The translations under genes and the position numbers were made by a program. The notes beneath the pieces are model-generated. The model did not search any database and had not been told where the DNA came from. It worked only from the letters and a program-made list of their open reading frames with translations. From an uncultured delta proteobacterium (GTDB lineage: Bacteria; Myxococcota; Myxococcia; Myxococcales; Anaeromyxobacteraceae), in assembly GCA_963737085.1 (NCBI GenBank), contig CAVTRR010000005.1:173409-237408 (forward strand): a stretch of DNA of 64,000 nt. Reading direction: 5' to 3'. How positions within the stretch are numbered: position 1 is the stretch's first letter; the number at the start of each line of letters is the position of its first letter. Below are positions 8,690 to 27,261 of this stretch, one piece after another.

Positions 8690-8704
8690 GCGCCGGCGCC
8701 GCGC

Positions 8705-10913: not shown

Positions 10914-12269
10914 GTGAGCGCCGGGATCGGATCGGTCGACTGCCCGGACCCGCCGGGAGCGGCCGCGCCCGCCGTGGCCGGCGTCCCGCAGGGCCTCGCC
11001 GAGCACCCGGAGGCGGCGCCCCGCCCGCGCATCAGCCTCCGCCGGAACGTGGCGTGGGCGTTCGCCGGCAACGCCGTGTACGGGGGCTGCCAGTGGGCGA
11101 TGCTGATCGTCATCGCGAAGATCGGCACCCCGGAGCTCGTCGGGCGGTTCGCGCTCTCCTTCGCCGTCACGGCGCCCGTGATGATGGCCGCGAACCTCAA
11201 CCTGCGCGGCATGCAGGCGACCGACGCCCGCCAGGCGTACGGGTTCGGCGACTACCTCGCCCTGCGCCTGGTCTCGCTGTCGCTCGCCTTCGCGTCGATC
11301 GTCGCGCTGGCCGTCCTCGTGTACCCCGGGGAGACGGGGCTCGCGATCGTGATCGTCGCGGTCGCGAAGGGCGCGGAGTCGCTGAGCGACGTCTACTTCG
11401 GGTTCATGCAGCGGCACGAGCGCATGAGCCTCATCGCCCGCTCGCACATGATCAAGGGCGTCGCGTCGGTCCTCGCGCTGGCGGTGGGGCTCCGCCTCGG
11501 GGGGACGCTGCCCTGGGCCGTCGCGGGCGTGGCCCTCGCGTGGATCGCCGTCCTCCTGCTCTACGACGTCCGCCGCGCCGGGGAGCTCGCGCGCGCCGTG
11601 GGGCGCCCGCGCCTGCGCCCGCGGTGGCGGCGGCCCGTGCTGATCTCGCTCGGGCGGCTCGCGCTCCCCCTCGGGCTGGCCGCGCTGCTCGGCTCGCTGC
11701 TCACCAACATCCCGCGCCTGTTCGTCGAGCGGCTCCTCGGGGCCCGCGAGCTCGGCTTCTTCGCGGCCGCCGGCTACCTCATCATCATCGGGGCGCGGTT
11801 CATGACCGCGCTCGGCGAGTCCGCCAGCCCGCGGCTCGCGGAGTACCACGCCCGCGGCGAGCAGGCGCGGTTCCGCCACCTCCTCCTCCGCATGGTCCTC
11901 CTCGTGGCCGGCGTGGGCGCCGCGGCCATGGCGATCGTCGCGGCCTCCGGCGAGGCCCTCCTGGCCGTCCTGTACCGCCCGGAGTACGCGACCCAGGCCG
12001 GCGTGCTGCTCGTCCTGATCCTGGGGGCGATGCTCGGGTACGCGGCCGTCCTGCTGCAGTACGCGATGACCTCGCTGCGCGCGCTGCGGGTCCAGCCCTT
12101 CGTGCTGGCCGCGGCCGCGGTCGTGACGGCGGCCGCCTGCGCGCTCCTCGTGCCGCGCCACGGGAACATGGGCGCGGCGATCGCGATGTGCCTCGGCGCC
12201 GTCGCCCAGGCCGCGGGGAACGGGTGGGCGATCCGCGCCGCCCTGCGCGGCTTCCGGAGCGCGACATGA
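10914..12269 (+). CDS. Oligosaccharide flippase (Wzx, MOP/PST family)
   Basis: LRRNVAWAFAGNAVYGGCQW, multi-TM profile, ELGFFAAAGY, PRLAEY. Start codon approximate. Confidence 0.8.
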   Translation: MSAGIGSVDCPDPPGAAAPAVAGVPQGLAEHPEAAPRPRISLRRNVAWAFAGNAVYGGCQWAMLIVIAKIGTPELVGRFALSFAVTAPVMMAANLNLRGMQATDARQAYGFGDYLALRLVSLSLAFASIVALAVLVYPGETGLAIVIVAVAKGAESLSDVYFGFMQRHERMSLIARSHMIKGVASVLALAVGLRLGGTLPWAVAGVALAWIAVLLLYDVRRAGELARAVGRPRLRPRWRRPVLISLGRLALPLGLAALLGSLLTNIPRLFVERLLGARELGFFAAAGYLIIIGARFMTALGESASPRLAEYHARGEQARFRHLLLRMVLLVAGVGAAAMAIVAASGEALLAVLYRPEYATQAGVLLVLILGAMLGYAAVLLQYAMTSLRALRVQPFVLAAAAVVTAAACALLVPRHGNMGAAIAMCLGAVAQAAGNGWAIRAALRGFRSAT

Positions 12270-13531
12270 CCGTCTCCAGGCTCGCCGGCGGCGCCTGCGG
12301 CGCGCTCGCCGCCCTGTATTTGCTGACCGGGCGGTGGACCCTGTCCCGGCTGAGCGAGGAGGCGGCGGCCCCGCGCTTCCACGACGAGCTCCGGTTCTGG
12401 GTCGTGCTGCTGCTCGTCGCGGCGTCGCTGCTCACGAGCGCCCCGCGGCTCACCTCGCCCGGCAGGCGGGGCGGGGTCGCGGTGCTGCTGCTCGCCGCGC
12501 TGTTCTACTACCTGCTCGCGTCCGCGACGTGGGCGCCCGACGCGGCGCTCGCGGGGGCCAAGGCCTACGAGGTGGCGCTCGTGGCGCTCGCCACCCTCGG
12601 CTTCGCGCGGGCGCTCGCGAGCCGCGAGTCGGAGCACGTGCTCCGGTCGATGTGGGCGGCGATCCTCGTGACGGCGGGGGCGCTCGCGGCCGTCGCGGTG
12701 GCGAGGGTGGTCGCGCTCGGCGCGACCGGCGAGCGGCTCGCGGTCCTCGGCGGGGGGCCCAACACGTTCGCGCGGATCATGGGGTACCTCGCCGTGGCCG
12801 CGCTGTTCTTCTGGACGCGGCGCGGCCGCTCGTGGGCGTTCATGCCCATCGTGTCCGTCGCGCTCGTGCTCGTCCTGCTCAGCGGCTCGCGCGGAGGCCT
12901 GGTGGCGCTGGTCGCGGCCGTCGGGGTGTTCGTCGCCCTGGAGGTGCGGCGGGCCGGCCGGCTGCTCGCGGGGGCGCTCCTCGCCGCCGCGGTCTTCGGG
13001 CTCGCCGCCAGCTACACGCAGATCGGCCGGGCGGCGGTCGAGACCTACGAGCAGCGCGTGGCGCAGCTCCTGCTCGAGGAGCAGTACACGGCGGGGCGGA
13101 CCGAGCTCTACCGCTCGGCGTACGAGCTGGCGATGAGGGAGCCGCTCTTCGGCGACGGGCTCGCGGCCTTTCCGGCGCGCGCGCTCGGCGTGTACCCGCA
13201 CAACCTGTTCCTCGAGGCGTTCTGCGAGGCGGGGCTCGTCGGCCTCGGGCTGCTCGCGCTCGCGCTCGCGGCCGGGACGGCGTCCGCGCTCCGCGGCGGC
13301 CGCGCCCCGGAGGGCGCCGCGCTCGCCGCGTTCGTCCTCGTGCTGGTGGCGAGCCAGTTCAGCGGCGACCTCTACGACAGCAGGGGCGTGTTCGCCTTCC
13401 TCGTCGCGGCCAACCTCCGCCCGGGCGCCCGGAACCCCTCCCCGGGCGAGGCGCCGGGCGTCGAGCCCGGGGACGCGGGCGCCGAGCCGGCCCCGGGGGA
13501 CGCCGCGCTCGCGGGCGACCGTCCGGTCTGA
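12266..13531 (+). CDS. O-antigen ligase/polymerase family protein (Wzy_C domain)
   Basis: ATGA overlap with wzx; about 10 TMs; GGGPNTFA, LLSGSRGG, GRTELY, PLFGDG, YPHNLFLEAFCEAGLVG. Confidence 0.85.
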   Translation: MTVSRLAGGACGALAALYLLTGRWTLSRLSEEAAAPRFHDELRFWVVLLLVAASLLTSAPRLTSPGRRGGVAVLLLAALFYYLLASATWAPDAALAGAKAYEVALVALATLGFARALASRESEHVLRSMWAAILVTAGALAAVAVARVVALGATGERLAVLGGGPNTFARIMGYLAVAALFFWTRRGRSWAFMPIVSVALVLVLLSGSRGGLVALVAAVGVFVALEVRRAGRLLAGALLAAAVFGLAASYTQIGRAAVETYEQRVAQLLLEEQYTAGRTELYRSAYELAMREPLFGDGLAAFPARALGVYPHNLFLEAFCEAGLVGLGLLALALAAGTASALRGGRAPEGAALAAFVLVLVASQFSGDLYDSRGVFAFLVAANLRPGARNPSPGEAPGVEPGDAGAEPAPGDAALAGDRPV

Positions 13532-13541
13532 GCCGTCACCT

Positions 13542-14819
13542 TCAGGCGGGGGTGGCCGGGCGCGGGCCGCCGGCGAGCGGGGGCGCCGGCGCGGGCATGC
13601 GGGCCTGCCGCCCGACCGCGCGCACGAGGACGCCCTCCAGCTCGCGCGTGAGCGCGTCGCGGGCGTAGCGGGACTCGGCGAGCGCGCGGGCCGCGCGCCC
13701 CATCGCCTGCCGCCCCGCCGGATCCCGCTCGAGCGCCCGCAGCGCGCCGGCGAACGAGGCCGGCGAGCGGGGGTCGGCGGACAGGCCCGCGCCCGTCTCC
13801 CGGAGCACCCCGGCCATCCAGCCGCCGTAGTTCAGGAGCACGGGGCGGCCGGCGGCGAGCACGTCGAAGAACTTGTTGGCCGAGTTGGTCTCGAGGAGCG
13901 GCAGCGGCGCGACCGTCACGAGGCCGACGTCGGCGGCGGCGAGCCACAGCGGGATGTCGCGCTTGGGCACCGGCGGGTGCAGCGAGACCGAGCGGATGCC
14001 CTCCGCGCGGGCCCGGGCCTCCAGCCGGCGCGCCTCGATGCCGTCGCCGAGCAGCACGATCCGCACGTCGCGCGCGCCCGCGGCGTCGAGCGCCTTCCCC
14101 GCGTCGAGGACGTAGTCGAGCCCGTTGACGCGGCCCATCGCCCCGGCGTGGACCGCGACGAGCTTCCCGGTCCAGCCCATGCGCTCGCGGAACGCCTCGC
14201 GCTGCGCCTCGACGGCGGGGGTCGCGAACGCGTCGGTGTCGGCGAAGTTCGGGATCACGGTGAGGCGCGAGGCGTCCACGCCCCAGTCGTCGCGGATGAC
14301 GCGCGCCATGTCGGGCGAGAGCGCGACCACCTCCGCCGCCGCGCCGTAGATGCGCCTCGCCATGAGCCGCGCCCCCCAGCGCAGCAGGGGCGTCGGCAGG
14401 GCGCCGAACACGATCGGGATCTCGGGCCACAGATCGCGCACCTCGAACACGAACGGGACGCGGTGATGGGCGGCGGCGACGCGCCCCACCTCGCCGACCG
14501 TGAGCGGGGTGGAGCTGGCGAACACGACGTCGGGCCGCGGGAGCCGCCGGGCGGTGCGGATCGCCCAGCGCATGTACCGCGCGAACACGGCCATGCGCCG
14601 CGCGTACGAGCCGCTCTGGTAGACGACCGGCGACCGGATGACCTCGATCCCGGCCTCCCGCGCGTCGTCGTCCGACCGCGGCGTGTCGGTGTGGGTGCCG
14701 CACAGCAGCGTCACGCGGTGGCCGGAGTCGGTGAGCCGCTGCGCGACCGCGAAGGGCCGGATGCTGCCCCGGACGGCGTCGCGCGGGAAGAAGTGCTGGA
14801 CGACGTAGAGGACGTTCAT
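13542..14819 (-). CDS. Glycosyltransferase family 4 (WbuB-like)
   Basis: MNVLYVVQHFFP, FEVRDLWPE, VIPNFAD, HAGAMGRVNGL, NKFFDVLAAGRPV. Confidence 0.88.
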   Translation of the reverse strand: MNVLYVVQHFFPRDAVRGSIRPFAVAQRLTDSGHRVTLLCGTHTDTPRSDDDAREAGIEVIRSPVVYQSGSYARRMAVFARYMRWAIRTARRLPRPDVVFASSTPLTVGEVGRVAAAHHRVPFVFEVRDLWPEIPIVFGALPTPLLRWGARLMARRIYGAAAEVVALSPDMARVIRDDWGVDASRLTVIPNFADTDAFATPAVEAQREAFRERMGWTGKLVAVHAGAMGRVNGLDYVLDAGKALDAAGARDVRIVLLGDGIEARRLEARARAEGIRSVSLHPPVPKRDIPLWLAAADVGLVTVAPLPLLETNSANKFFDVLAAGRPVLLNYGGWMAGVLRETGAGLSADPRSPASFAGALRALERDPAGRQAMGRAARALAESRYARDALTRELEGVLVRAVGRQARMPAPAPPLAGGPRPATPA

Positions 14820-15040
14820 GGCCCACCCCGGTGGTGCGGTGAGCCGTGGGGGCCCCCGCCGGCCCCTCGAACGGGCCCGCGGGCTGAATGTAGGGACACG
14901 CCCGGCGCTGTCGCGAACTCCGAACGGGCAGCGATCCCGCGGCCCTCCCGGGCGCAGCCGGTCCCCGGAAAGGCACCTGGCCCCCCGCGGCGGCGCGCGG
15001 GAGGCCAGGCGTGGCGTGAAGTCGGGCGCCGTGGACCGCG

Positions 15041-16978
15041 CTACCGGCCGTTCAGGATCCGGGCGTTGAGCGCCCCGTTCCCGTAGAGCTGCATCCCCCT
15101 GCCCACCGCGTGGGTCTCGAGGCGCTTCTGGACGGTGGCGTCGTAGCGGCCGAGCTTGCAGAACCCGTCGTTGAACCAGCCGTTGCCGGTGCCGCTCCCG
15201 TCCACGTACTGGGCGTAGCGGTAGCCGGTCGAGGTGGGGATCCAGACCTTGTTCAGGAGCGTCCGCGTGATCGCCCGCATGTCCGTCGCCGTCCACTCGA
15301 TCCCGAGGGCGTTCGCCTCGACGAGGTAGGCGACGAGGTTGTTCCCGTGGCTCACGTCCTGCCCCGGCGCGGCGAGGGAGCCCCAGACGTCGCTCCAGAA
15401 GTACGCCGCCGTATCGCCGCTCGCGGGCTTCATCTGCTGCCGCAGCGACGACGCGTAGTTGGGCAGGTGCAGGTTGATGTTGTCGAGCACGGTCCGGTAC
15501 TTCGCCCGCTCGACGGTGTCGGCCGTGAGGGTCCACAGGTCCGCCGCGATGAACGCCCAGTGCGCCGCCATGTGGGTCCTGGAGCGGTAGATGTTCTCGT
15601 TGGCGCCGCGCTTCGACCACTTGTCGAAGACGTTGACCTTCGTGAACGCCAGCACGTCGTCGTAGGTCTTGCGGTACGCGGGGTCGGCGTAGACGGCGGC
15701 GTTGCCGCGCATCGCCCTGAGCAGCTTCGTCACGTACCGGAAGCAGTAGCTCTCGTAGAGCGGGTACTCGCCCCCGGCGATGCTCGGATCGGTCGGGTGG
15801 TCCCACGCGCCCCAGCCCAGGTACCCGTCCTTGTACTGGCTCGCGGCGAGCGAGGACGAGGGCACCGCGCTGGCCATCACGTTGCGCACGTAGAGGAGCG
15901 CCCGGTCGAGGTACTTCGTGTTCCCCGTCGCCTCGAACATCGCGGTGAGGCCGTCGATGCCGTAGGCGAGGTTGTAGTACCGCCAGCTGTTCCCGGACGT
16001 GCTGAGCGGGAGGTACGTGTTCAGGTGCTCGTTCTCCCAGCTCCCCAGGAACAGGCTCTCCCACTGCGCCACCGTCCGGAGGCTCGGATCGACGGGCGTC
16101 GTCGTCGTGGGCGGCGGGAGGACCGGGGCGGTCACGGTCATCGCGGCGGCCGCCTGCTTCGTCGGGTCCGCGCTGCTCGTGGCGGTGACCCGGTACGTGC
16201 CGGCCGTCGCGGGGGCGGTGTAGAGCCCGGCGGCGCTGACGCTGCCGCCGCCGGAGGCGACGGACCACGTCACGGCGACGTTCGCCGAGCCCGTCACCGA
16301 CGCGGCGAGCTGGAGGCTGGTGCCGGTCTCGATCGACGCCGTCTGCGGCGTGACCGCGACGGCGACGGTCGGGGCGGGCGGCGGCGCGGCGGGCGGCGCG
16401 GTCACCGTGACGGCGGCCTGGTCCGACCTCGCGGGATCCGCCGCGCTCGTCGCGACGACGTGGTAGGTCCCGGCGGTCTGCGGCGCGGTGTACACGCCCG
16501 CCGGGGTGACGGCGCCGCCCGCGTCGCCCTCGGCGACGCTCCAGGAGACCACCTTCTGGTCGCCCGTCACGCTCGCCGCGAGCGCGAGCGACTGGCCCGG
16601 CGCGATCGTCGCGGCGCTCGGGCTCACGTCCACGCGGACGTTCCGCTTGACGCGCACCGCGGTGGACTGCGTGGTCGCGAGGGAGCGGAACGACGCGAGG
16701 ATCGTGTAGGCCCCCTCGCCGTCGGGCGCCGTGTAGGCGCCGCTCGGGTCGATGGTGCCGCCCCCCGGCTCGAGGACGGTCCACTCGACGTCCGTGTCCA
16801 CCGTCCCGGCGACCTGCGCGACGAAGTCGATCGTGCCGCCGGGCTCCACCTCGGGAGAGGCGGGCGTGACGGCCGTGAGCAGCTCGGCGGCGTCCCCTGC
16901 GGGGCCGCCACACGCGGACAGCGTCGTGAGGAGGGCTGCGAGACCAAGCATGGCTGAGACGCGGCGCAGTATCGTCAT
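15041..16978 (-). CDS. Lipoprotein with three Ig-like (Big_2-type) repeats and an aromatic-rich, probably alpha/alpha C-terminal domain
   Basis: Signal peptide with lipobox LSAC; three repeats of V-x-P...V-x-W-x-V...G-x-YTAP...G-x-Y; Pro/Thr linkers; C-terminal ~330 aa with MFEATGNTKYLDRA. Confidence 0.75.
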   Translation of the reverse strand: MTILRRVSAMLGLAALLTTLSACGGPAGDAAELLTAVTPASPEVEPGGTIDFVAQVAGTVDTDVEWTVLEPGGGTIDPSGAYTAPDGEGAYTILASFRSLATTQSTAVRVKRNVRVDVSPSAATIAPGQSLALAASVTGDQKVVSWSVAEGDAGGAVTPAGVYTAPQTAGTYHVVATSAADPARSDQAAVTVTAPPAAPPPAPTVAVAVTPQTASIETGTSLQLAASVTGSANVAVTWSVASGGGSVSAAGLYTAPATAGTYRVTATSSADPTKQAAAAMTVTAPVLPPPTTTTPVDPSLRTVAQWESLFLGSWENEHLNTYLPLSTSGNSWRYYNLAYGIDGLTAMFEATGNTKYLDRALLYVRNVMASAVPSSSLAASQYKDGYLGWGAWDHPTDPSIAGGEYPLYESYCFRYVTKLLRAMRGNAAVYADPAYRKTYDDVLAFTKVNVFDKWSKRGANENIYRSRTHMAAHWAFIAADLWTLTADTVERAKYRTVLDNINLHLPNYASSLRQQMKPASGDTAAYFWSDVWGSLAAPGQDVSHGNNLVAYLVEANALGIEWTATDMRAITRTLLNKVWIPTSTGYRYAQYVDGSGTGNGWFNDGFCKLGRYDATVQKRLETHAVGRGMQLYGNGALNARILNGR

Positions 16979-17389
16979 CCGTAGCCTTTCGTGGGAGGGC
17001 TCGTGAGGCACGAGGTCGCTCGCCCGCCAGACCACCCCCGGGCATCCCGGGAGCACGCTGCTCGGACGTTGGAGGGCACGCTCTCAGACCGGACGAGATG
17101 GCGGCCGCTCTGTCCCACAAACGGAGGACGCGGGGCGGGTTATTCCCTGTTCGGGTCTAAACCCATCCAGGCCACCGTAATCGCGTAATTTCGAGGGGTT
17201 GCGCGCGTGCGGGGCTGGATCCGACGCGCAGGCGGCGGTCGGGCCGGCCTCGGAGGCGTCGGGCGCGCGGGCGACGCCCGGCCGGGCGAGGCCGAAAGGA
17301 ACGGTCAGCGGATGGGGCGCCCGGAGGGCGGTCGTGGAGGGGAGCCGTCCCGGCTCGACCCTCCGCGCGGGTCTGGCGGGTCTACGCTG

Positions 17390-18028
17390 CTACAGGTTCC
17401 GCCAGGACCGCCCCAGCACGCTGTACGCCGTGAGGAGGCGCTGCACCTGGAACCCGAGCGCGAGCAGCCCGTTCAGCGAGACGATGTTGTCCTTCCGGAC
17501 GTAGGTGTGGCACGTGCGGAAGCCCTCGTCCCTCGCCATCGAGAGCACGTGGTGCTTCAGCGTCGGGAAGGTCCCGAGCCCTCGGAAGCGAGGGTAGATG
17601 AACACGTTCTCGGTCAGGACCTCCCGCTCGCGGAGCGGGTAGAAGACGTGCCGGAAGTGCCGCTCGAGGAGCGGGTTCTCCCGGGGCCGGACGAGCCACT
17701 GCATCGCCACGAGGTCGCCGCGCTCGGTCCGCCCGAGGTAGCACCCCGAGAAGCCCCGCCTGAAGAAGAGGACGCGGGTCACGAGCTCCCTGCGCGACTC
17801 CGCGTCGAGCGCGGGGAGGCCCCGCTCGATCTCGGCGAAGTCGTCCGCCGTCGCCTGCGCGAAGCGGAGGTCCGTCCGCAGCCGCGGGAAGCGGACGCGG
17901 GCGAGCGGCGCCGTCAGGTGGAAGAAGTGGTCGACCCAGGCGATCCGCTTCAACGCGTACAGGGCAGGGGTCCGGACCCCCAGGTTCGAGGTGACGAACC
18001 GCACCCTGTCGAGCGAGGTGGCGATCAT
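17390..18028 (-). CDS. GNAT family N-acyltransferase
   Basis: GGAGG SD; acyl-CoA-binding motif VFIYPRFRGLG and DNIVSLNGLLALGF. Confidence 0.75.
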   Translation of the reverse strand: MIATSLDRVRFVTSNLGVRTPALYALKRIAWVDHFFHLTAPLARVRFPRLRTDLRFAQATADDFAEIERGLPALDAESRRELVTRVLFFRRGFSGCYLGRTERGDLVAMQWLVRPRENPLLERHFRHVFYPLREREVLTENVFIYPRFRGLGTFPTLKHHVLSMARDEGFRTCHTYVRKDNIVSLNGLLALGFQVQRLLTAYSVLGRSWRNL

Positions 18029-18062
18029 CAGGACCTCCAGGGGACGCGCCGGCAGTCTCGGC

Positions 18063-18338
18063 TCAGCCCGCCGGCAGCACCTGCGCCGCCTCCCGGTCGC
18101 GGAGCTTCCGGTCCACGAACGCGGCGATCCGCCGGATGGACTCGAGGTTCTCGGGGACCGTCTCCTCGTCCCCGACGCGGATCCCGAACTCGGCCTCCAG
18201 GAACGCGATGATCTCGAGCATCCCGGTCGAGTCCACGATCCCGCTCGGGACGAGCGGGGTGTCGTCGGTGAGCTCCGCCGGATCGCTCACGTAGAAGTTC
18301 TCGACGACGAACAGGCCCACGCGCTGCTGGATGTTCAT
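18063..18338 (-). CDS. Acyl carrier protein
   Basis: 91 aa, acidic, GIVDSTGMLEII with the phosphopantetheine Ser, EAEFGI, ENLESI. Confidence 0.9.
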   Translation of the reverse strand: MNIQQRVGLFVVENFYVSDPAELTDDTPLVPSGIVDSTGMLEIIAFLEAEFGIRVGDEETVPENLESIRRIAAFVDRKLRDREAAQVLPAG

Positions 18339-20371
18339 GCTGCCCCCTCCGCGGCCTCCGCGGCCGCGCCTGCGTCCTGCCCCGGCAACCTATCGACGAA
18401 CGTGCTGAACTCCACCGGCTCGACCCGCGAAGGCGGGCGCCGGACGAGCTGCTCGTGCAGGAGCGCCGTGGAGAGCACGCCGACGAGCGCCATGTTGTCG
18501 GCGTTCGAGAGCGGCTCGCCGGAGGCGGCCTCCCGGCACTTCCGCCACAGCCGGCCGACCGCGAACGGATCGAAGACGCCCGCGTCCTCCAGCGCGCGCT
18601 CGCCGACGAGGTCGGCCACCCAGTCCGGGGACCCCCGCCCCACGAAGGAGAGCGCGTCGGGGGCGCGGTAGGGCTGCTTCGGCCGGCGCAGGATCTCGTC
18701 GGGCACGAGGCCGCGCGCGGCCCGCTTGAGCACGTGCTTCTCGTCGAGGCCGCGGAGCTTGAACGAGGCCGGCAGCGCGTTCGCGAGCTCGACGACGTCG
18801 GGATCGAGGAACGGAAAGCGGCCCTCGACCGAGTGGGCCATCAGCATCCGGTCGCCCTGGGAGGAGAGCAGGTACCCGGAGAGGAGCGTGCGCGCCTCGA
18901 GGTACTGGTCCTGCGCGAGGGGGTCCCAGCCGCCGAAGTCGCCGGGCAGCGAGGCGAGGAGCCGCCCGACCACGTCCGTGCGCCCGAGCTCGTCGCGCAG
19001 CTCGGCCCGGAAGAACCGCTGCAGCGCGGCCGCGGAGCGCCAGCGGGGCAGGTGCGCGAAGCCGGGGGCCGCCCACGCCTCGAGCTCGCGCCCGAAGAAC
19101 GCGCGCGCCATCGAGCGCTGCGCCACGGGCGACCGGGCGAGGTACGGGTAGAGGCGCTCCAGCAGCCGCGGGCGCAAGGTCGAGGCGGGCTGCCGCCCCC
19201 AGAAGCGCCGGACCCGGCCCTCGCGGAAGAGGTCGTACCCGGCGAACATCTCGTCGGCCCCCTCGCCGGTGAGGACGACCTTGATCCCGGCGTCGCGCAC
19301 GAGCCGCGACAGGAGGAAGAGCGGCGCCGCCGCGGTGCGGAGGAGCGGGCGCTCCGCGTGCGCGACCACGTCGGGGAAGGCGGCGGCGATGTCCGCGCGG
19401 CGCACGACGATCTCGCGGTGGTCGCTCGCGATGCGCGCCACGACGGCGCGCTGGAAGGCGGTCTCGTCGTACTCCGCGTCCTCGAAGCGGACCGAGAACG
19501 TGCAGAAGCTCTCGCCCTTCACGCGCCGTCCCAGCGCCGCCACGAGCGAGCTGTCGAGGCCGCCGGAGAGGTAGCTGCCCACCGGCACGTCCGCGCGCAG
19601 CATGCGCAGGCGGACCGCCTCCTCGAGCGCGGCCCGGACGCGCTCCGACGCCTCCTCGATCGTGCCGGTCGAGGGCTGGCCGGCGGCCGGGTAGCGCGGC
19701 GTCCAGAAGGCGCGGTCCTCGCTGCCGCGCGCCGACACCTTGCGCAGGTGGCCGGGCTCGAGCTCGGTGACGCCGCGGAACACGGACTGCGGCGGCACCA
19801 CCGTCCAGAAGGTGAAGGTCTCGGCGAGCCCCACCGGATCCAGCGCGCGGGGGATGGAGGGGTCGCCGGCGAAGATCGCCTTCACCTCGCTCGCGAACCA
19901 GAGGCGCCCGCCGTGCTCGCAGAGGTAGAGCGGCCGGACGCCCAGCCGGTCGCGCGCGAGGACGAGCGTCTCGCGGCGGGCGTCCCAGAGCGCGATCGCG
20001 AACTGGCCGTTGAACCGCTCGAACGCGCGCTCGCCCCAGGCCTCCCAGGCGTGGACGATCACCTCGGTGTCGCTGCGGGTCCGGAGGCGGTGGCCGAGCG
20101 CCCGGAGCTCCTCGCGCAGCTCGACGTAGTTGAAGATCTCGCCGTTGAAGACGATCCAGAGCGAGCCGTCCTCGTTGCAGAGCGGCTGCTGGCCGGTGGC
20201 GAGATCGATGATCGAGAGGCGGGCGTGCCCCAGCGCGGCGCGGCGGTCGCGGTAGAGGCCGAACTCGTCCGGGCCGCGGTGCCGCAGCGCCCCCACCATC
20301 GCGGCGGCGTCCGCGAGGGCGGGCGGCGGGACGTCGTCGCGCAGCGCGACCGAGCCGGCGACGCCGCACAT
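18335..20371 (-). CDS. asnB: Asparagine synthase (glutamine-hydrolysing)-like amidotransferase
   Basis: N-terminal MCG nucleophile, RHRGPD, HARLSIID, FNGEIFN, SDTEV, YLSGGLDSS, VVLTGEGADE, SVEGRFPFLD. Confidence 0.92.
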   Translation of the reverse strand: MCGVAGSVALRDDVPPPALADAAAMVGALRHRGPDEFGLYRDRRAALGHARLSIIDLATGQQPLCNEDGSLWIVFNGEIFNYVELREELRALGHRLRTRSDTEVIVHAWEAWGERAFERFNGQFAIALWDARRETLVLARDRLGVRPLYLCEHGGRLWFASEVKAIFAGDPSIPRALDPVGLAETFTFWTVVPPQSVFRGVTELEPGHLRKVSARGSEDRAFWTPRYPAAGQPSTGTIEEASERVRAALEEAVRLRMLRADVPVGSYLSGGLDSSLVAALGRRVKGESFCTFSVRFEDAEYDETAFQRAVVARIASDHREIVVRRADIAAAFPDVVAHAERPLLRTAAAPLFLLSRLVRDAGIKVVLTGEGADEMFAGYDLFREGRVRRFWGRQPASTLRPRLLERLYPYLARSPVAQRSMARAFFGRELEAWAAPGFAHLPRWRSAAALQRFFRAELRDELGRTDVVGRLLASLPGDFGGWDPLAQDQYLEARTLLSGYLLSSQGDRMLMAHSVEGRFPFLDPDVVELANALPASFKLRGLDEKHVLKRAARGLVPDEILRRPKQPYRAPDALSFVGRGSPDWVADLVGERALEDAGVFDPFAVGRLWRKCREAASGEPLSNADNMALVGVLSTALLHEQLVRRPPSRVEPVEFSTFVDRLPGQDAGAAAEAAEGAA

Positions 20372-20374
20372 CGG

Positions 20375-21349
20375 CTAGGCCCCGGGCTGCTCGCCCGCGA
20401 GCAGCGGCGCCTGGTGCAGGTACCGGCTCGCCCGGCGCTTCGCCTCGATGTCGCGGTAGACGCGCTCGACCTGCGCCGCGCTGAGGCCGATGACGGCGCC
20501 CACCTCCTCCGCGGGCGTGGCGTGGTCGTGGGCCCACAGGCACAGGTCCATGTCGCGGTAGGGCAGGGCGAAGTAGAACTCCTCCTGCGTCTGCGCGAGC
20601 GAGAAGGTGTCCGTGGTGGGCGGCCGGCTGCGGATCTCCGGCGGGACGCCGAGGTGCTCGGCGAGCGCGTACACCTGGGTCTTGTAGAGGTGCGCGATGG
20701 GCTTCAGGTCCGCCGCGCCGTCGCCCTGCTTCACGAAGAAGCCCTGGTCGTACTCCAGGCGGTTCGGCGTGCCGGCCACGGCGTAGCCCAGGCGATCCGC
20801 GTGGTAGTACTCCACCATCTTCCGGACGCGCTGCTTGAAGTTCGTGGCGGCCACGAGCTGGAGGTACGCGGCGGGCGGCATCCGCGCGCTCCGCTCGTTC
20901 CCCTGCGGGTCCGCGACGGTCAGCCGGGTGATGTTGAGGCGGTCGCGCTCGACGAGCGGCGGCAGCGAGAGCTTGCAGCGCCAGCCCTCGCCGTACTCGG
21001 GGAAGACGGCGCGGATGGCCTCGAGCTGCCGCGCGTAGCAGCCCAGCCCCGCCAGCGCGGGCCCGACGTCCTCGACCAGGAGCCGGACGCCGAGCTGGTC
21101 CGCGAGCAGCCGGGCCAGGCGGAGCGCGTCCCCGGAGGAGTCGCGCTCCGGCATCGCGAGCGCGAGCACGCGGTCCCGCCCGAGCGCGCGCGCGCAGAGC
21201 GCCGCGACCACGGAGCTGTCGATCCCGCCCGAGACCCCCACCACCGCCCCGCGGCGGCGCAGCACCCCGAGGGCCTGCTCCCGGAGGGTCGCCTCGATCT
21301 CCCGCGCGAGGCGCGGAGCGTCGATCCCCAGCACGTTTCGAGAGAACAT
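20375..21349 (-). CDS. nadE: NH3-dependent NAD synthetase-like N-type ATP pyrophosphatase (no glutaminase domain)
   Basis: PP-loop GVSGGIDSSVV, NFKQRVRK, GTPNRLEY, FFVKQGDG, KPIAHLYKTQVYALA, PTTD. Confidence 0.85.
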   Translation of the reverse strand: MFSRNVLGIDAPRLAREIEATLREQALGVLRRRGAVVGVSGGIDSSVVAALCARALGRDRVLALAMPERDSSGDALRLARLLADQLGVRLLVEDVGPALAGLGCYARQLEAIRAVFPEYGEGWRCKLSLPPLVERDRLNITRLTVADPQGNERSARMPPAAYLQLVAATNFKQRVRKMVEYYHADRLGYAVAGTPNRLEYDQGFFVKQGDGAADLKPIAHLYKTQVYALAEHLGVPPEIRSRPPTTDTFSLAQTQEEFYFALPYRDMDLCLWAHDHATPAEEVGAVIGLSAAQVERVYRDIEAKRRASRYLHQAPLLAGEQPGA

Positions 21350-21440
21350 CGCACCCGACGTTAAGGCCCGCCCGCCGCGCGCGGCACTCGGATCTATGGG
21401 GGCCGCTTGCTCCGCGCGGCGCGGGCACCACATTGCAGCG

Positions 21441-23072
21441 GTGCGACGCCTCGTCCCAGCGCCGGTCGCCCGGCCCGAGTCCCCCTTCCTCCACGAGTGG
21501 GTCTTCTTCCACGCCGACCGCCGGCCGGACGCCCCGGCGATCGCGACCCCGGAGACGCGCCTCTCCTACGGCGAGCTGGCCGAGCGGGTTCGCGCCCTCG
21601 CGGGACGGCTCGCCGCGGCCGGCGTCGCCCCGGGCGACCGGGTCCTCCTCTCGCTCCCGAACGTCCCGGCGGCGGTCGTCGCGGGCCTCGCGATCCACGC
21701 GGCGGGCGCCACGTCCGTGGAGGTGAACCGCGAGTGGAACGCGGAGGTCCTCTCCGGGATCGTCCTGCGGACCGGCGCGCGCCACGCGCTCGTGTGGGGG
21801 CGCGACGCGCGGACCTGGGCGCAGGTCCACGCCGAGCGGGCGCTCGCACGGCTGTGGGTCGTGCAGGGCGGCGCGTCCGCGCCGCTCCCGCCGCCGCTGC
21901 GCGGCGCGCCCGCGTCGCTCCTCGGCGAGGACGGCCGGGTGGACCCCTCGCTGCCGTGGAGCGCGCCGCGGCCGGCCGGCGACGACCCCGAGCGGCCCGC
22001 GCTCGTCCTCTACACGTCGGGCAGCACCGGCGTCCCGCGGGGCGTCGTCCAGAGCTTCCGCAACGTGGACGCCAACTCCCGCGCCATCGCGGAGTACCTG
22101 CGCCTCGACGCGAGCGACCGCGCCCTCCTCGTCCTGCCGCTCTACTACTGCTACGGCCGCAGCGTCCTGCAGACGCACCTGCTCGCCGGGGGCTCGGTCT
22201 TCCTCGACGGCCGCTTCGCGTTCCCGCGCGTGGTGCTCGAGGCGCTGGGCGCGGAGGGGTGCACCGGCTTCGCGGGCGTCCCGCTCACGTTCGAGATCCT
22301 CCGCAGGCAGGTGGACGTCTCGACCCTGTCCTTCCCGCGGCTGCGCTACCTCACCCAGGCCGGGGGCGCCATGGCCGCCGAGACGATCGACTGGGTCCGG
22401 CGCGCGTTCCGGCCGGCGCAGCTCTTCGTCATGTACGGGCAGACGGAGGCGACGGCGCGCCTCGCGTACCTCCCGCCCGAGCGCGCGGAGGAGAAGCGCG
22501 GCTCCTTCGGGATCCCCATCCCCGGGGTGGAGCTGCGGGTCGTGGACGAGGCGGGGCGCGAGCTGCCCGCGGGCGACGTGGGCCACCTGGTGGCCCGGGG
22601 CGCGAACGTGACGCGGGGCTACCTCGACGACCCCGAGGAGACCGCCGCCATCCTCCACGACGGGTGGCTCTGGACCGGCGACCTCGCCCTGCGCGACGCG
22701 GACGGGTTCCTGTTCCACCGGGGGCGCGCCAAGGAGATCCTGAAGATCGGCGGGCACCGGGTGAGCCCCGTGGAGATCGAGCAGGTCGTCGCGCGCCACC
22801 CGGCCGTCGCGGAGGCGGCGGTCGTCGGCGTGAAGCACGACCTCATGGGCGAGGTCGCCGCGGCGTTCGTCGTGCCGCGGCCGGGCAGCGCGCCTCCGAG
22901 CGACGCCGAGCTGCGGCGCCACTGCCACGAGCGGATGCCGCCGTACCAGGTCCCGGTGGCGTTCAACTGGGTCGAGGCGCTGCCCAGGAACCCGGCGGGC
23001 AAGCTCCTGCGCGCCGCGCTCGCTGCGCGCCACGCCGCGCCGGCTTCCGGGTCGGAGCACGATCCGTCCTGA
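21441..23072 (+). CDS. Class I adenylate-forming enzyme (acyl/aminoacyl-ACP ligase-like)
   Basis: YTSGSTGVPRG P-loop, YLTQAGG, MYGQTEA, WLWTGDL, GRAKEILKIGG, LPRNPAGK. Divergent from nadE. Start approximate (21396-21441). Confidence 0.88.
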   Translation: MRRLVPAPVARPESPFLHEWVFFHADRRPDAPAIATPETRLSYGELAERVRALAGRLAAAGVAPGDRVLLSLPNVPAAVVAGLAIHAAGATSVEVNREWNAEVLSGIVLRTGARHALVWGRDARTWAQVHAERALARLWVVQGGASAPLPPPLRGAPASLLGEDGRVDPSLPWSAPRPAGDDPERPALVLYTSGSTGVPRGVVQSFRNVDANSRAIAEYLRLDASDRALLVLPLYYCYGRSVLQTHLLAGGSVFLDGRFAFPRVVLEALGAEGCTGFAGVPLTFEILRRQVDVSTLSFPRLRYLTQAGGAMAAETIDWVRRAFRPAQLFVMYGQTEATARLAYLPPERAEEKRGSFGIPIPGVELRVVDEAGRELPAGDVGHLVARGANVTRGYLDDPEETAAILHDGWLWTGDLALRDADGFLFHRGRAKEILKIGGHRVSPVEIEQVVARHPAVAEAAVVGVKHDLMGEVAAAFVVPRPGSAPPSDAELRRHCHERMPPYQVPVAFNWVEALPRNPAGKLLRAALAARHAAPASGSEHDPS

Positions 23073-23242: not shown

Positions 23243-23785
23243 ATGAGCGCGCTTCAGGGGGTCAGGGCGGGAGTGTTCGTGGCGGCGCTGGCGGTGCTTC
23301 TGGGCCTGCCGGGCCTGGCGGCGGCACACCTGCCGCCGACGTGTCCGGAGACGTGGAACCCGGCCGAGGAGCCGTCGAAGTTCACCGGCGTGCCCGGCGG
23401 GTGGTCGACCGCGCCCGGCACCACGAACGAGTCCACGCCGCAGAACCCGGACGGCTTCTTCCTGGTCCAGACCTCCGATGGGCACGACGTGGAGCTGTGG
23501 GACGGGTGCCCCGGCTTCGGTGGCCTCGAGGAAGGAAACGGCACCGGCGACCTGATCACGACCGTGGATAGCGGGACCGCCATCAAGTACACGGAGGCGA
23601 ACGGCAAGGAGATCGGCTTCAAGCCGATGGCCGCCAACAACGGCCAGGCCGGCGGCAACGCCGACTACATCTACATCCACGTCTGGGGCCAGGGCGACCT
23701 GTGGGTGTGCGACGCGCTGGACGATACGGCGTGCGCGTGCTGCTACGTCCCGCCGCCGCCGTTCACGCCGCCACAGGAGCAGTAG
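23243..23785 (+). CDS. Secreted Cys-containing hypothetical protein
   Basis: GGAGGGG SD, Sec signal (VFVAALAVLLGLPGLAAA), six Cys including C-terminal CACC, Pro-rich tail; no family recognised. Confidence 0.7.
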   Translation: MSALQGVRAGVFVAALAVLLGLPGLAAAHLPPTCPETWNPAEEPSKFTGVPGGWSTAPGTTNESTPQNPDGFFLVQTSDGHDVELWDGCPGFGGLEEGNGTGDLITTVDSGTAIKYTEANGKEIGFKPMAANNGQAGGNADYIYIHVWGQGDLWVCDALDDTACACCYVPPPPFTPPQEQ

Positions 23786-23962
23786 CCAGGCCCCCGCACG
23801 ATCGGCGGTCCACCGTCACCGTACCGCTCCGGGCCCCGCGCGCATCCGCGCGCGAGGCCCGCTCGCTTTCGGGGCGTGGGGGGCCGCCACGAGGCCGGAG
23901 CGGGAGCGCGTGCAGCGCCGACTTGACGCGTCTCCGCGAAGCGATTACCTCCTGCTCTCTTC

Positions 23963-23976
23963 TGAATCCCGGTTCA
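23963..23976. promoter_or_regulatory. Candidate TetR operator
   Basis: TGAA-N6-TTCA inverted repeat 5 nt before the tetR ATG; a TTGACG -35-like hexamer lies at 23923-23928. Confidence 0.4.
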
Positions 23977-23981
23977 CGGAA

Positions 23982-24584
23982 ATGAGCAAGAGTTCACCCC
24001 CGCCGATCCGCCTGCGCGAGCGCCTCCGCGACGAGGCGGCCCGCGCCATCCTCGCGGCCGCCGAGGAGGTGTTCGCCGAGGAGGGGCTCAAGGCGCGCAT
24101 GGAGCGGATCGCCGCGCGCGCCGGGGTGGCCGTCGGGACGCTCTACAACCACTTCGAGGACCGGGAGGCGCTGCTCCGGTCGCTCGTCCGCTCGCGCCGG
24201 GAGGCGCTCCTCGAGCGGGTGGACCGGGCCGTCGCGGCCGCGGGCGACGCCGGCGTCGAGGCGCGGCTCCGCGCCTTCCTGCGCGGGGTGCTCGAGCACG
24301 CGGCCGCCCACGGGGGCCTCCTCTCGGTGCTGGTGCAGGCGGGCGAGGGGCCCGCGCGGCCGCGCCCTCCCAAGACGCTCCTCGCCGACCTCGCGGCGCG
24401 CGCCGACCGGATCGTGGCGGAGGGGGTCGCGGCCGGCGAGCTGCGCCCCGACGACGCGAAGGTGTTCGGCCTCGCGCTCGTCGGCATGGCGCGCGCGGTG
24501 CTCGTCCGGGCGCTCGAGCGCGGCGCGTCCGCGGACGCCACCGACGCGCTCCTCGACCTCTTCCTGCGCGGGGCCGCGCGGTGA
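23982..24584 (+). CDS. TetR/AcrR family transcriptional regulator
   Basis: AILAAAEEVFAEEG...MERIAARAGVAVGTLYNHFEDREAL HTH. Confidence 0.92.
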   Translation: MSKSSPPPIRLRERLRDEAARAILAAAEEVFAEEGLKARMERIAARAGVAVGTLYNHFEDREALLRSLVRSRREALLERVDRAVAAAGDAGVEARLRAFLRGVLEHAAAHGGLLSVLVQAGEGPARPRPPKTLLADLAARADRIVAEGVAAGELRPDDAKVFGLALVGMARAVLVRALERGASADATDALLDLFLRGAAR

Positions 24585-26203
24585 CGACGCTCTCGGCCAC
24601 CCACCCCGGCGCGCTCCCCGCCGCGCGGCCGGCCACGAACAAGTGGCTCGTCACGGTCTCGGTGACCTTCGGCACGCTCATGGGGGCGATCGACGCGTCG
24701 ATCGTGAACGTCGCCCTCCCGCACATGCGCGGCGCGGTCGGCGCGACGCTCCAGGAGATCACCTGGATCACCACCGGCTTCGCGATCGCCACGGTGATCG
24801 TGATGCCGCTCACCGCCTTCCTGGGCCGCCTCTTCGGCCAGAAGCGCGTGTACATGGCGAGCCTCCTCCTGTTCGTCGTCGCGTCGGCGCTCTGCGGCGT
24901 CGCCGCGACGCTCACCCAGCTCGTGCTCTTCCGCGTGCTGCAGGGGGTCGGCGCGGGCGCGCTGCAGCCCACGGAGCAGGCGATCCTGAGGCAGACCTTC
25001 CCGCCCGAGGAGCAGGGGCTCGCCATGGCCCTCTTCGGCATGGCGGTGATGATCGGCCCCGCGGTCGGCCCGACGCTGGGCGGGTACATCGTCGACAACT
25101 TCCACTGGTCCTGGATCTTCTTCATCAACCTGCCGGTGGGCGCCCTGGGCCTCTTCATGGTCTGGCGGTTCGTCCACGAGCCCGAGGACGTCCGCGCCGC
25201 GAACGCGGCGGGGGCGGCGGCGCAGCGCCGCAACCTGGACTGGATCGGGATCGCGCTCCTCGCCGTGGGGCTCGCCGCGCTGCAGTTCCTCCTCGAGGAG
25301 GGGCAGCAGAAGGACTGGTTCGAGTCGAGCCTCATCGTGGGCTGCGCGGCCGTGACCGGGGTCGCCCTCGCGCTCTTCGTCTGGCGCGAGCTCGTGGCGC
25401 CGGTCCCGGCGGTGAACGTCCGCCTGTTCAAGGACCCGCTCTTCGCCTCCGGCACCGCCATCGGCGCGGTGATGTTCGCGATCCTGCTCTCCTCCATGTT
25501 CCTCCTGCCGGTCTTCATGCAGGAGCTGCTCGGCTTCACCGCGATGCAGTCCGGCCTCGCGCTCATGCCGCGGACGCTCGTGATGATGGCGGTGACGCCC
25601 TTCGTCGGGCGGCTCTACGGGCGCGTCTCGGCGCGCGCCCTCATCGCCGTGGGGATCGCCTTCGTGTCCATGGGGGCGTGGCTCGTCTCGCACGTCACGC
25701 TCGAGACCACCTCGCGGGGGATCGTGCTGCCGATCATGGTCCAGGGCATCGGCTTCAGCTTCCTCTTCGTGCCGCTCACCACCGCGGCGCTCGCGAACAT
25801 CCCGCGCCAGAAGCTCGCCGACGCGACCGGCCTCAACTCGCTGCTGCGCCAGGTGGGCGCCTCGATGGGCCTCGCGGTCTTCGCGACGCTCCTGTCGCGC
25901 TACGGCGTGCAGGCCAAGGCGGCCGTCGCCGCCCACGTCGCCCTCGACCGGCCCGAGGTGCAGGCCCGCCTCGCCGCGCTCGCGGGCGGGTTCGCGCAGG
26001 GCGGGCTCGATCCCGTCTCGGCCCAGGAGGCGGCGCTCCGCGCGCTGAACGGGATCGTGACCCGGCAGGCGATGGCGATCGCCTTCGAGCGCGTGCTGCT
26101 CCTCAGCGGCGTCCTGCTGCTCGCCGTCCTGCCGCTCCTCTACTTCCTGAAGGTGAAGCGCCGCCGCCCGTCCGCGGCGCCCCACGTCGAGCTGGAGATG
26201 TGA
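24581..26203 (+). CDS. emrB: DHA2 (EmrB/QacA) 14-TM MFS efflux permease
   Basis: DASIVNVALPHM, RLFGQKR, RVLQGVGAG, GPAVGPTLGG, WSWIFFINLPVG. Confidence 0.9.
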   Translation: MTTLSATHPGALPAARPATNKWLVTVSVTFGTLMGAIDASIVNVALPHMRGAVGATLQEITWITTGFAIATVIVMPLTAFLGRLFGQKRVYMASLLLFVVASALCGVAATLTQLVLFRVLQGVGAGALQPTEQAILRQTFPPEEQGLAMALFGMAVMIGPAVGPTLGGYIVDNFHWSWIFFINLPVGALGLFMVWRFVHEPEDVRAANAAGAAAQRRNLDWIGIALLAVGLAALQFLLEEGQQKDWFESSLIVGCAAVTGVALALFVWRELVAPVPAVNVRLFKDPLFASGTAIGAVMFAILLSSMFLLPVFMQELLGFTAMQSGLALMPRTLVMMAVTPFVGRLYGRVSARALIAVGIAFVSMGAWLVSHVTLETTSRGIVLPIMVQGIGFSFLFVPLTTAALANIPRQKLADATGLNSLLRQVGASMGLAVFATLLSRYGVQAKAAVAAHVALDRPEVQARLAALAGGFAQGGLDPVSAQEAALRALNGIVTRQAMAIAFERVLLLSGVLLLAVLPLLYFLKVKRRRPSAAPHVELEM

Positions 26204-26205
26204 CC

Positions 26206-27261
26206 ATGACCCCTCCCGATCCCAAGCTCCACCCCGTGCCCGAGGACGCGGCGCCCCGCCCCGCCGAGCCCGGCCGGGCCGCCGCGCGCCGCGGCGGGAA
26301 GCGGCGCGTCCTCGCGGGCGTCGGCCTCGTCGCGGCGGTCGCGCTCGCGGCCGCCGGCGTGCGGGCCTTCCTCGCCCGCGGCGACGAGACCACCGACGAC
26401 GCCTTCGTCGAGGCGGACGTGGTCGCGGTCGCGCCGCGGGTCGCCGGCACGGTGGCCGAGGTCGTCGTCGCCGAGAACGCGGCCGTCCGCGCGGGGGACG
26501 TCCTCCTCCGCCTCGACGACGCCGACTACGTGGCGCGCGCCCGCCAGGCAGAGGCCGAGGTCGAGACCGCCCGGGCGCAGGCGGGCGCCGCCGACGCCCA
26601 GGTCCGCGCCGCCCGCGCCACCGTGTCCCGGACCGACGCGGAGGCGGAGAAGGCGAAGCTCGACCTCGCGCGCGCCGAGGAGCTCCGCGCCGGGGGCGCC
26701 ATCGCGACCGAGCGCTTCGACGCCTCGCGCATCTCGAGCGAGACCGCGCGCGCGGGCGCCGGCGCGAACCGCGCCCAGTACGCCGCGGCGCTCGCCAACG
26801 TCGACCTCTCGCGCGCGCGGGTGAAGTCCGCCGAGGCGGCCCTCGAGCTCGCGCGCCTGCAGCGCTCCTACACGGTGGTCCGCGCGGCCGCGGACGGGAC
26901 CGTCTCGCGGCTCGCGGCGCGCACCGGCCAGATCGTGCAGCCGGGGCAGGTGCTCGCGCAGCTCGTGCCGAGCGCGACGTACGTCGTCGCGAACTTCAAG
27001 GAGACGCAGACCGGCGCCATCCGGCCCGGCCAGGCGGTGGAGGTCGAGGTGGACGCCTACGGCGGCCGGAAGCTCGAGGGACGGGTGGAGAGCCTCTCCG
27101 GAGGCACGGGCGCACGCTTCGCCCTCCTCCCGCCCGACAACGCCTCGGGGAACTTCGTGAAGGTGGTGGAGCGCGTGCCGGTGCGGATCGCCTGGGCCGC
27201 GCCGCCCGGGCTGGCGCTCCGCGCCGGGCTCTCCGCGAGCGTGACCGTGCACACGCGGTAG
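26206..27261 (+). CDS. emrA: HlyD/EmrA family membrane fusion protein
   Basis: TTDDAFVEAD, VAPRVAGTV, V-x-AGDVL, VVANFKETQ, FALLPPDNASGNFVKVVERVPVRI. Confidence 0.92.
   Translation: MTPPDPKLHPVPEDAAPRPAEPGRAAARRGGKRRVLAGVGLVAAVALAAAGVRAFLARGDETTDDAFVEADVVAVAPRVAGTVAEVVVAENAAVRAGDVLLRLDDADYVARARQAEAEVETARAQAGAADAQVRAARATVSRTDAEAEKAKLDLARAEELRAGGAIATERFDASRISSETARAGAGANRAQYAAALANVDLSRARVKSAEAALELARLQRSYTVVRAAADGTVSRLAARTGQIVQPGQVLAQLVPSATYVVANFKETQTGAIRPGQAVEVEVDAYGGRKLEGRVESLSGGTGARFALLPPDNASGNFVKVVERVPVRIAWAAPPGLALRAGLSASVTVHTR

Follow-up and report, generated by a model that had tools for sequence, protein, structure and literature searches.

A widespread asnB-acp-ligase-nadE1 cassette in a surface-polysaccharide locus of an uncultured member of the Anaeromyxobacteraceae, and its possible role in amide-bearing acyl decoration

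The pSymB replicon of Sinorhizobium meliloti carries an operon of four genes: asnB, smb20651 for an acyl carrier protein (ACP), smb20650 for a ligase, and nadE1 (Ramos-Vega et al. 2009, Microbiology 155:257, doi 10.1099/mic.0.022079-0, as described in PMC7232532). According to the account in PMC7232532, which cites the 2009 study, SMb20651 is converted to holo-ACP with AcpS, and acylated forms appear when SMb20650 is co-expressed. SMb20650 is unable to replace FadD (PMC7232532). Here we investigate positions 17390-23072 of a 64,000-nucleotide stretch of DNA (the window; contig CAVTRR010000005.1 of assembly GCA_963737085.1, from an uncultured member of the Anaeromyxobacteraceae), where genes for a NadE-like protein, an AsnB-type amidotransferase, an ACP, a GNAT-fold protein and an adenylate-forming ligase lie together. 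This region is an Anaeromyxobacter copy of a widespread four-gene cassette, asnB-acp-ligase-nadE1. The original prediction for this DNA knew of no solved chemistry for the gene set; the four-gene core itself has been on record from S. meliloti since 2009, and at least 8000 protein clusters, spread over many phyla, encode it. Our literature search for the gene set found no paper giving a product or solved chemistry.

What might such a cassette make? We lean, with moderate confidence, towards an amide-bearing acyl group that would be built on the ACP and transferred to a polysaccharide. That the region is a copy of the cassette is held with much higher confidence, and any specific acid or acceptor with much lower confidence, than this reading.

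Other described systems resemble parts of the cassette. AsnB-type amidation by OxyD gives the malonamyl starter of oxytetracycline, and OxyD and the hydroxyamidotransferase TsnB9 (PDB 7YLZ) share with the window an AsnB homologue for a carboxylate other than that of aspartate. Unlike those pathways, the cassette has no polyketide synthase (PKS), includes a second, NadE-type amidoligase, and presumably makes a glycan decoration. A stand-alone ligase paired with a stand-alone carrier protein is also found in VinN-VinL-VinO of the vicenistatin pathway and in DltA-DltC; the ligase of the window differs in having no Asp at the position that binds an alpha-amino group, and it is accompanied by neither MBOAT/DltD nor a PKS. 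WbpS and WbqG, of O-antigen uronamide formation, are AsnB paralogues in polysaccharide loci with a UDP-sugar dehydrogenase, as here, but the window AsnB belongs to a family tied to a NadE-like protein, an ACP and a ligase across phyla. The XrtA/PEP-CTERM accessory set comprises a ligase (TIGR03098), a pyridoxal phosphate-dependent decarboxylase (TIGR03099), an ACP, hydrolases (TIGR03100 and TIGR03101) and an amidotransferase (TIGR03108). It too has an ACP loaded by an ANL ligase inside exopolysaccharide (EPS) loci and includes some of the best sub-cut-off NCBIfam relatives of the window ligase and AsnB; it differs in score (window ligase 321 vs 592 bits for TIGR03098; AsnB 428 vs 817 for TIGR03108) and in having the decarboxylase where the cassette has the NadE-like protein and AsnB. 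An exosortase context was ruled out for the window, as the genome (99.97% complete) has no match to PF09721.

At 74% G+C the window is filled with long spurious open reading frames (ORFs), and genes were therefore called by G+C content at third codon positions (GC3); families were assigned by Pfam and NCBIfam profile searches. All five genes are in frames with coding signal (GC3 0.92-0.98) and have the coordinates given in the original prediction:

20375-21349, minus strand: NadE-like PP-loop amidoligase, 324 aa from M29, longest ORF to 21433 (NAD_synthase, NF002048)
18335-20371, minus strand: AsnB-type glutamine-dependent amidotransferase, 678 aa (GATase_7 and Asn_synthase)
18063-18338, minus strand: dedicated acyl/peptidyl carrier protein (ACP), 91 aa, phosphopantetheine Ser in VDSTG
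17390-18028, minus strand: GNAT-fold acyltransferase of a narrow family, 212 aa (predicted structure and RxxGxG motif)
21396-23072, plus strand: ANL adenylate-forming ligase of type A (defined below), 558 aa (AMP-binding and AMP-binding_C), alternative GTG start at 21441

The minus-strand run is tightly packed, as had been stated. Three nt separate the stop of the NadE-like gene from the start of asnB, the ACP start lies on the asnB stop in an ATGA overlap, and 34 nt separate the ACP gene from the GNAT gene, which has GGAGG ahead of its ATG; the ligase gene is divergent on the plus strand. Homologue length makes M29 (21349) the most likely start of the NadE-like gene, 324 aa being the length of nearly all of its 120 best homologues. 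This start would leave a divergent intergenic region of 46-91 nt between the NadE-like and ligase genes. Domain scans of ORFs across 474-28690 found no ketosynthase or condensation domain in any of them, in agreement with the original prediction.

By tblastn the NadE-like gene is found on pSymB-type replicons. On one of these, CP050561.1 (locus L085), the genes are annotated as asnB, acyl carrier protein, acyl-CoA ligase and nadE, in that order, and the ACP and ligase genes are the counterparts of SMb20651 and SMb20650. The window proteins are 51% (AsnB), 49% (ACP), 35% (ligase) and 56-60% (NadE-like) identical to those of CP050561.1. The same four homologous families are thus clustered in both organisms; the window differs in its order (nadE-asnB-acp with a divergent ligase), in having a ligase of another clade, with Cys instead of Asp at position A4, and in adding the GNAT and a FemAB-like partner inside a Wzx/Wzy locus. 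Relatives of the NadE-like protein with 62-81% identity are encoded in Myxococcota, Chloroflexota, Acidobacteriota, Pseudomonadota, Bacteroidota, Chlorobiota and Planctomycetota. We compared 80 loci around such relatives, and in most of them genes for AsnB, the ACP and the ligase are beside the NadE-like gene. This recurrence across many phyla makes the arrangement in the window far more than a matter of chance. Of the five genes, that for the GNAT falls outside this core of four, as an addition specific to certain lineages.

Is the NadE-like protein the housekeeping NAD synthetase of this organism? It scores 510 bits against the NCBIfam model NF002048 (PRK00876; cut-off 313) and matches PF02540 in two pieces. 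Another contig of the genome (G000:C3) encodes a further protein with a NAD_synthase match, much the stronger of the two (260 bits); it is a two-domain protein of the glutamine-dependent type (CN_hydrolase plus NAD_synthase). All 15 genomes sampled from the genus encode this two-domain NadE, and about half have the NadE-like gene; within the family Anaeromyxobacteraceae the distribution of NF002048 is patchy (29 of 61 genomes). A canonical NadE likewise accompanies the cassette in 14 of 14 cassette-bearing genomes tested from several phyla (Mesorhizobium, Sphingomonas, Sideroxydans, Comamonadaceae, Bacteroidota, Chlorobiaceae, Chloroflexota, Acidobacteriota, Planctomycetota and Myxococcota). 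The view in the original prediction that this NadE is probably not for NAD synthesis is borne out: a separate housekeeping nadE exists, and the local gene, which is not the sole nadE, encodes an accessory paralogue. Of this, too, we are much more confident than of the overall reading. One of 14 control genomes, that of Methanosarcina acetivorans, was the sole one to score above the NF002048 cut-off, so that cassette-type NadE occurs in an archaeon too.

The protein shares its fold, PP-loop and Mg/ATP residues with canonical ammonia-dependent NadE (Bacillus subtilis 1KQP/1EE1; Pyrococcus horikoshii 2E18), and probably also the chemistry of adenylation followed by attack of ammonia. An AlphaFold2 model built with 31 locus sequences (overall predicted local distance difference test score, pLDDT, 87.4) has a NadE-fold core, with a TM score of 0.84 to 2E18. 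When 78 family members were aligned to B. subtilis NadE (sequence matched to PDB 1EE1), the ATP/Mg site was found to be kept, S46, G47, G48, D50, S51, R139, T157, E162, K186 and T208 being invariant; N133, K135, R137, F167, F168, K170, D173 and K258 (B. subtilis numbering) are invariant as well. Five other positions have changed: Val stands in place of Y32, F129 and T169 in all or nearly all members (Y32V, F129V, T169V), and no member keeps Y171 (mostly Q instead) or H257 (mostly A). We take Y32, F129, T169, Y171 and H257 to line the deamido-NAD (NaAD) site of the B. subtilis enzyme, to which N133, R137, F167, F168, K170, D173 and K258, all kept, would also belong. The family also differs from canonical NadE in its low identity (17-28%) and in a conserved insert of about 70 aa at residues 99-168, which is predicted to be ordered, with two helices and a three-stranded sheet, and is rich in invariant residues (C104, Y105, Q108, W123, K126, R137, R156 and Y162).

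A genuine ammonia-dependent NAD synthetase isozyme, kept beside the AsnB and carrier genes for regulation or to supply a local demand for NAD, would explain the score above the cut-off of NF002048, a curated NCBI model that names the protein NAD(+) synthase. It would also fit the conserved ATP site, the retention of several residues of the nicotinate pocket (N133, R137, F167, F168, K170 and D173), and the 50 top-listed Foldseek matches of the model in the PDB, all of which are NAD or NMN synthetases. This explanation is nevertheless highly improbable, and NAD production by the protein very unlikely, given the canonical NadE always found alongside, the patchy distribution, the five replaced positions, the insert, the synteny of the four genes across phyla and the fusion of the NadE-like domain to carrier-protein machinery in some organisms.

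These fusions were found by searching 1.8 billion representative proteins, followed by domain scans. A full ANL ligase is joined to a NadE-like domain in a protein of 849 aa from three independent assemblies, and a 479-aa protein joins the NadE-like domain to an ACPS 4'-phosphopantetheinyl transferase (PPTase). In a third type, of 510 aa (locus L096), the NadE-like domain is followed by AMP-binding_C and PP-binding domains and takes the place of the adenylation core. The L096 gene cluster (5207-11594 of European Nucleotide Archive contig ERZ24794679) also encodes a didomain of adenylation and peptidyl carrier protein, a GDSL hydrolase, two alpha/beta hydrolases and an Sfp-type PPTase, with a GNAT upstream. 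Apparent fusions of NadE-like and AsnB domains were found as well; these could be gene-calling read-throughs.

The fusions bear on a second alternative, in which the cassette is two modules. The NadE-like protein and AsnB would amidate a uronic-acid sugar nucleotide or polymer to a uronamide, as has been proposed for WbpS-type enzymes, and the ligase, ACP and GNAT would independently add an ordinary acyl group; in that case neither amidating enzyme would contact the carrier protein. Of the gene adjacencies in the 80 loci, that of a NadE-like gene with asnB immediately after it is conserved best, and the pair, the tightest unit of the cassette, is sometimes apart from the other two genes, with no neighbouring ACP or ligase gene in loci L006, L049, L056 and L027. 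A UDP-sugar dehydrogenase is encoded in the window at 3731-5098, and the pocket of the ligase varies while the NadE-like protein and AsnB stay constant. We judge this alternative unlikely all the same. The NadE-like domain is fused to an ANL ligase, to a PPTase, and ahead of an adenylation subdomain and a carrier domain; NadE-like subclades track the type of ligase; and no sugar genes lie near the S. meliloti operon. Moreover, the special ACP is present in all seven genomes whose NadE-AsnB pair has no linked ACP or ligase, in some of them on another contig. Together with the fusions, this co-presence is the strongest evidence that the NadE-like protein would serve carrier-protein chemistry and not NAD supply, as judged from gene content and domain architecture.

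AsnB matches GATase_7 (2e-47), Asn_synthase (4e-93) and TIGR01536 (523 bits vs a cut-off of 267). Its glutaminase is intact, with an N-terminal MCG, and its synthetase domain has the PP-loop SGGLDSS; the nearest solved relative is TsnB9 (7YLZ; E 2e-68). The original prediction had suggested that AsnB might merely supply ammonia to the NadE-like protein. This part does not hold up well, because AsnB keeps a complete synthetase domain with a PP-loop of its own, and it is probably an amidating enzyme in its own right. It is the only Asn_synthase in the genome. Two complete genomes of the genus (G050 and G054) have none, and in seven genomes of the genus AsnB is encoded within 2 kb of the NadE-like gene. 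AsnB is therefore accessory and not the cell's housekeeping asparagine synthetase. As there is no Asn_synthase outside the cassette copy, asparagine is presumably made by the tRNA-dependent route in this organism and genus.

The ACP is encoded by a single copy in the genome. It scores 19.8 bits against Pfam PP-binding, just under the cut-off of 20.8, and gives weak NCBIfam ACP matches; the phosphopantetheine Ser, in VDSTG, is conserved. A weak, sub-cut-off resemblance to NF052616, a model for an ornithine-lipid ACP (62 bits), raised OlsH/OlsI and ornithine lipids as a lead, which we set aside because that pathway is GH3-dependent and the ACP score is far under the cut-off. The proposal in the original prediction that the neighbouring ligase loads the ACP has experimental support from the S. 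meliloti homologues, in the account that PMC7232532 gives of Ramos-Vega et al. 2009.

Among the cassette proteins, conservation is lowest in the ligase. In A domains that activate amino acids, the Asp at A4 (FDxS) binds the alpha-amino group, and we read this position from an alignment to LgrA. The window ligase and ten others have Cys there (PLYYCYGRS; type A), and identities of the window ligase to type-A ligases are 58-75%. Most cassette ligases, including that of S. meliloti, have Asp (LPLAFDYGLYQ; type B), and the best PDB matches of a type-B ligase are nonribosomal peptide synthetase A domains and VinN (3WVN). Further groups carry Val, Ser or Asn. In a maximum-likelihood tree of NadE-like proteins the subclades follow the type of ligase. 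The type-A loci form one clade (SH-like approximate likelihood-ratio test, SH-aLRT, 94) from Myxococcota, Chloroflexota and Acidobacteriota, and this span of three phyla indicates that the cassette travels as a unit.

The additional genes also differ between the types. Type-B additions among the 80 loci include a HemK/PrmC-like N-methyltransferase with an NPPY motif (29 of 80), an SGNH/GDSL hydrolase (17-18 of 80) and a CysE-like hexapeptide acyltransferase (11-20 of 80), and type-B cassettes of Sideroxydans carry exosortase-type alpha/beta hydrolases. The NPPY motif is a signature of amide or amine N-methylation. The methyltransferase gene sits between those for the ligase and the ACP (for example at 12459-13388 of locus L046) and is absent from the type-A clade. 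Some type-B cassettes, L046 among them, share hydr1/hydr2-like hydrolases and a pepcterm ATPase with the XrtA/PEP-CTERM set. Type-A loci carry FemAB-like, DegT and Bac_transf genes instead. Amino-sugar genes (DegT/CapD) are adjacent in just 2-3 of the 80 loci, all in the type-A clade, and we therefore rejected the idea that the cassette as a whole is tied to them.

The GNAT protein (17390-18028) has no Pfam or NCBIfam family match at E<=0.01; Acetyltransf_1 gives 15.2 bits (gathering score 20.7, E 0.027), below threshold. That it had been called a GNAT holds by predicted fold. In the PDB, its AlphaFold model (pLDDT 78.9) has 39 Foldseek matches at E<=0.001, and every one is a GNAT-fold protein, including VipF, MshD, glucosamine N-acetyltransferase and WecD (best E 1e-7); motif A, R147-F-R-G-L-G152 (RxxGxG), is conserved in 20 homologues. 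The family is small, with 35 homologues, and its members adjoin the cassette in each of three gene arrangements. In A. soli the GNAT gene is convergent to the ACP gene; a Joint Genome Institute contig has the row GNAT, small ORF, AsnB, ligase, NadE; and a metagenome-assembled genome of the Myxococcales (locus L086) has Wzc, FemAB-like, GNAT, FemAB-like, ACP, AsnB, ligase, NadE, DegT. The GNAT is the candidate transferase for the group borne by the ACP. The FemAB-like protein of the window (8705-9769) is a probable further member of the tailoring set. It is 62% identical to the FemAB-like protein encoded between the GNAT and ACP genes of L086, the window DegT is 79% identical to the one directly after the cassette there, and FemAB-like genes are also present in the type-A loci L005, L012, L020, L023 and L068.

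Judged by its gene content, the cassette is embedded in, and closes, a surface-polysaccharide (EPS) locus of the Wzx/Wzy/Wzc type, such as the original prediction had supposed. Except for the lipoprotein gene, the rows below rest on Pfam matches:

474-2465, plus strand: CapD/PglF-like 4,6-dehydratase
2486-3694, plus strand: DegT aminotransferase
3731-5098, plus strand: UDP-sugar dehydrogenase
from near 5095, plus strand: membrane-anchored endonuclease/exonuclease/phosphatase (EEP)-family protein (E 9e-22)
6338-8689, plus strand: Wzc
8705-9769, minus strand: FemAB-like/Acetyltransf_6 double-GNAT protein (PF13480 and FemAB)
9803-10501, minus strand: Bac_transf initiating transferase
about 11000-12269, plus strand: Wzx
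12266-13531, plus strand: Wzy_C, frame corrected by GC3
13542-14819, minus strand: GT4 glycosyltransferase, frame corrected by GC3
15041-17056, minus strand: Ig-repeat lipoprotein

With the sugar-nucleotide genes at 474-5098 the cell could make both an amino sugar, as a candidate acceptor, and a uronic acid; the polysaccharide locus has no PglD-type acetyltransferase. ORFs 5274-6401, 12334-13668 and 13372-14976 were rejected as out-of-frame artefacts, GC3 pointing to the EEP, Wzy_C and GT4 genes in their stead. The EEP-family domain ends near 6105 and its frame is open to 9087, passing through wzc in another frame, which could reflect an assembly indel or a lost stop. Beyond the ligase, plus-strand genes at 23243-27261 encode a secreted protein of 180 aa, which has no homologue in the 80 related loci, followed by TetR, an MFS transporter and a HlyD-type adaptor. 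These last three are an efflux unit unrelated to the cassette, and place the end of the locus near 23100.

How might these proteins work together? From the behaviour of the S. meliloti homologues, as related in PMC7232532, the ANL ligase would adenylate a carboxylic acid and thioester it to the phosphopantetheine arm of the ACP. The loaded acid would have to keep one or more carboxylates free. An alpha-amino acid is unlikely, because Cys replaces the Asp of the alpha-amino-binding position in the type-A clade, and our guess is a small di- or poly-carboxylate. AsnB, with glutamine, and the NadE-like protein, with ammonia, would each adenylate a free carboxylate of the carrier-bound group and convert it to a carboxamide; we place this amidation on the carrier because of the chemistry of the families and the fusions of NadE-like domains to carrier-protein machinery. 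Going by genomic context, the GNAT, possibly with the FemAB-like protein, would then hand the acyl group, with its amide, on to the glycan. The likeliest acceptor would be the amino group of a 4-amino-4,6-dideoxy sugar made by the CapD-like dehydratase and DegT, since no PglD-type acetyltransferase is there to take that amine. The repeat unit would be built on the Bac_transf enzyme and exported by Wzx/Wzy/Wzc.

Several observations weigh against this proposal. In addition to the separable NadE-AsnB pair, the curated NAD(+) synthase name and the conserved nicotinate-pocket residues described above, none of the cassette enzymes has a demonstrated substrate, and the amino-sugar acceptor is at best clade-specific. 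The main unexplained point is the ligase pocket, which varies (Asp, Cys, Val, Ser or Asn) against a near-constant NadE-like protein and AsnB; this is odd if both act on the substrate of the ligase. Then there is the S. meliloti copy, which is stand-alone beside minCDE, outside polysaccharide loci and with no sugar genes near. In Escherichia coli SMb20651 has reportedly been found carrying C12:0 or C18:0 acyl chains, which would fit a role in lipids.

These last two observations also speak for a third alternative, a lipid or free small molecule (an N-acyl amide, an aminolipid head group, a signal or an osmolyte), with the EPS location reflecting co-regulation or island structure only. The GDSL and alpha/beta hydrolases of related cassettes could release such a product, and the sub-cut-off likeness of the ACP to the ornithine-lipid model points the same way. 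Yet genes for Bac_transf, Wzc, DegT, CapD and FemAB-like proteins recur, in differing orders, on the flanks of cassettes of the window's clade, the structural matches of the GNAT include sugar-amine N-acetyltransferases (glucosamine N-acetyltransferase and WecD) alongside VipF and MshD, and SMb20650 does not activate long-chain fatty acids to coenzyme A thioesters in vivo (PMC7232532). We therefore consider a lipid or free product improbable, if worth keeping in mind, and continue to prefer an amide-bearing acyl group destined for the polysaccharide. Taken as a whole, the interpretation in the original prediction is partly supported.

A wider and more speculative possibility, to which we would give tentative credence at most, is that the NF002048 'NAD synthases' are mis-named PP-loop amidoligases that act on carrier-tethered carboxylates, or load the carrier themselves. 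The insert of 70 aa might dock the carrier or its phosphopantetheine arm. Acting with AsnB, these enzymes would assemble a di-amide (or amide-derived) acyl group, and thousands of species would carry it as a decoration of their surface polysaccharides; the clade of the ligase (Asp, Cys or Val) would set the acid.

The novelty lies in a Cys-type clade of ligases whose loci also carry members of a narrow GNAT family, FemAB-like proteins and amino-sugar genes, and together the clade, its partners and the amino-sugar context point to a concrete acceptor. Annotation pipelines label two of the cassette enzymes asparagine synthase and NAD synthase, so that metabolic reconstructions may over-credit routes to NAD and asparagine. 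Close homologues are present in the cultured Anaeromyxobacter dehalogenans 2CP-1, Anaeromyxobacter sp. Fw109-5 and A. oryzae, as well as in S. meliloti, which opens the question to experiment. Once solved, the chemistry would give the NadE fold a new function and, probably, bacterial surface glycans a new amide-bearing decoration.

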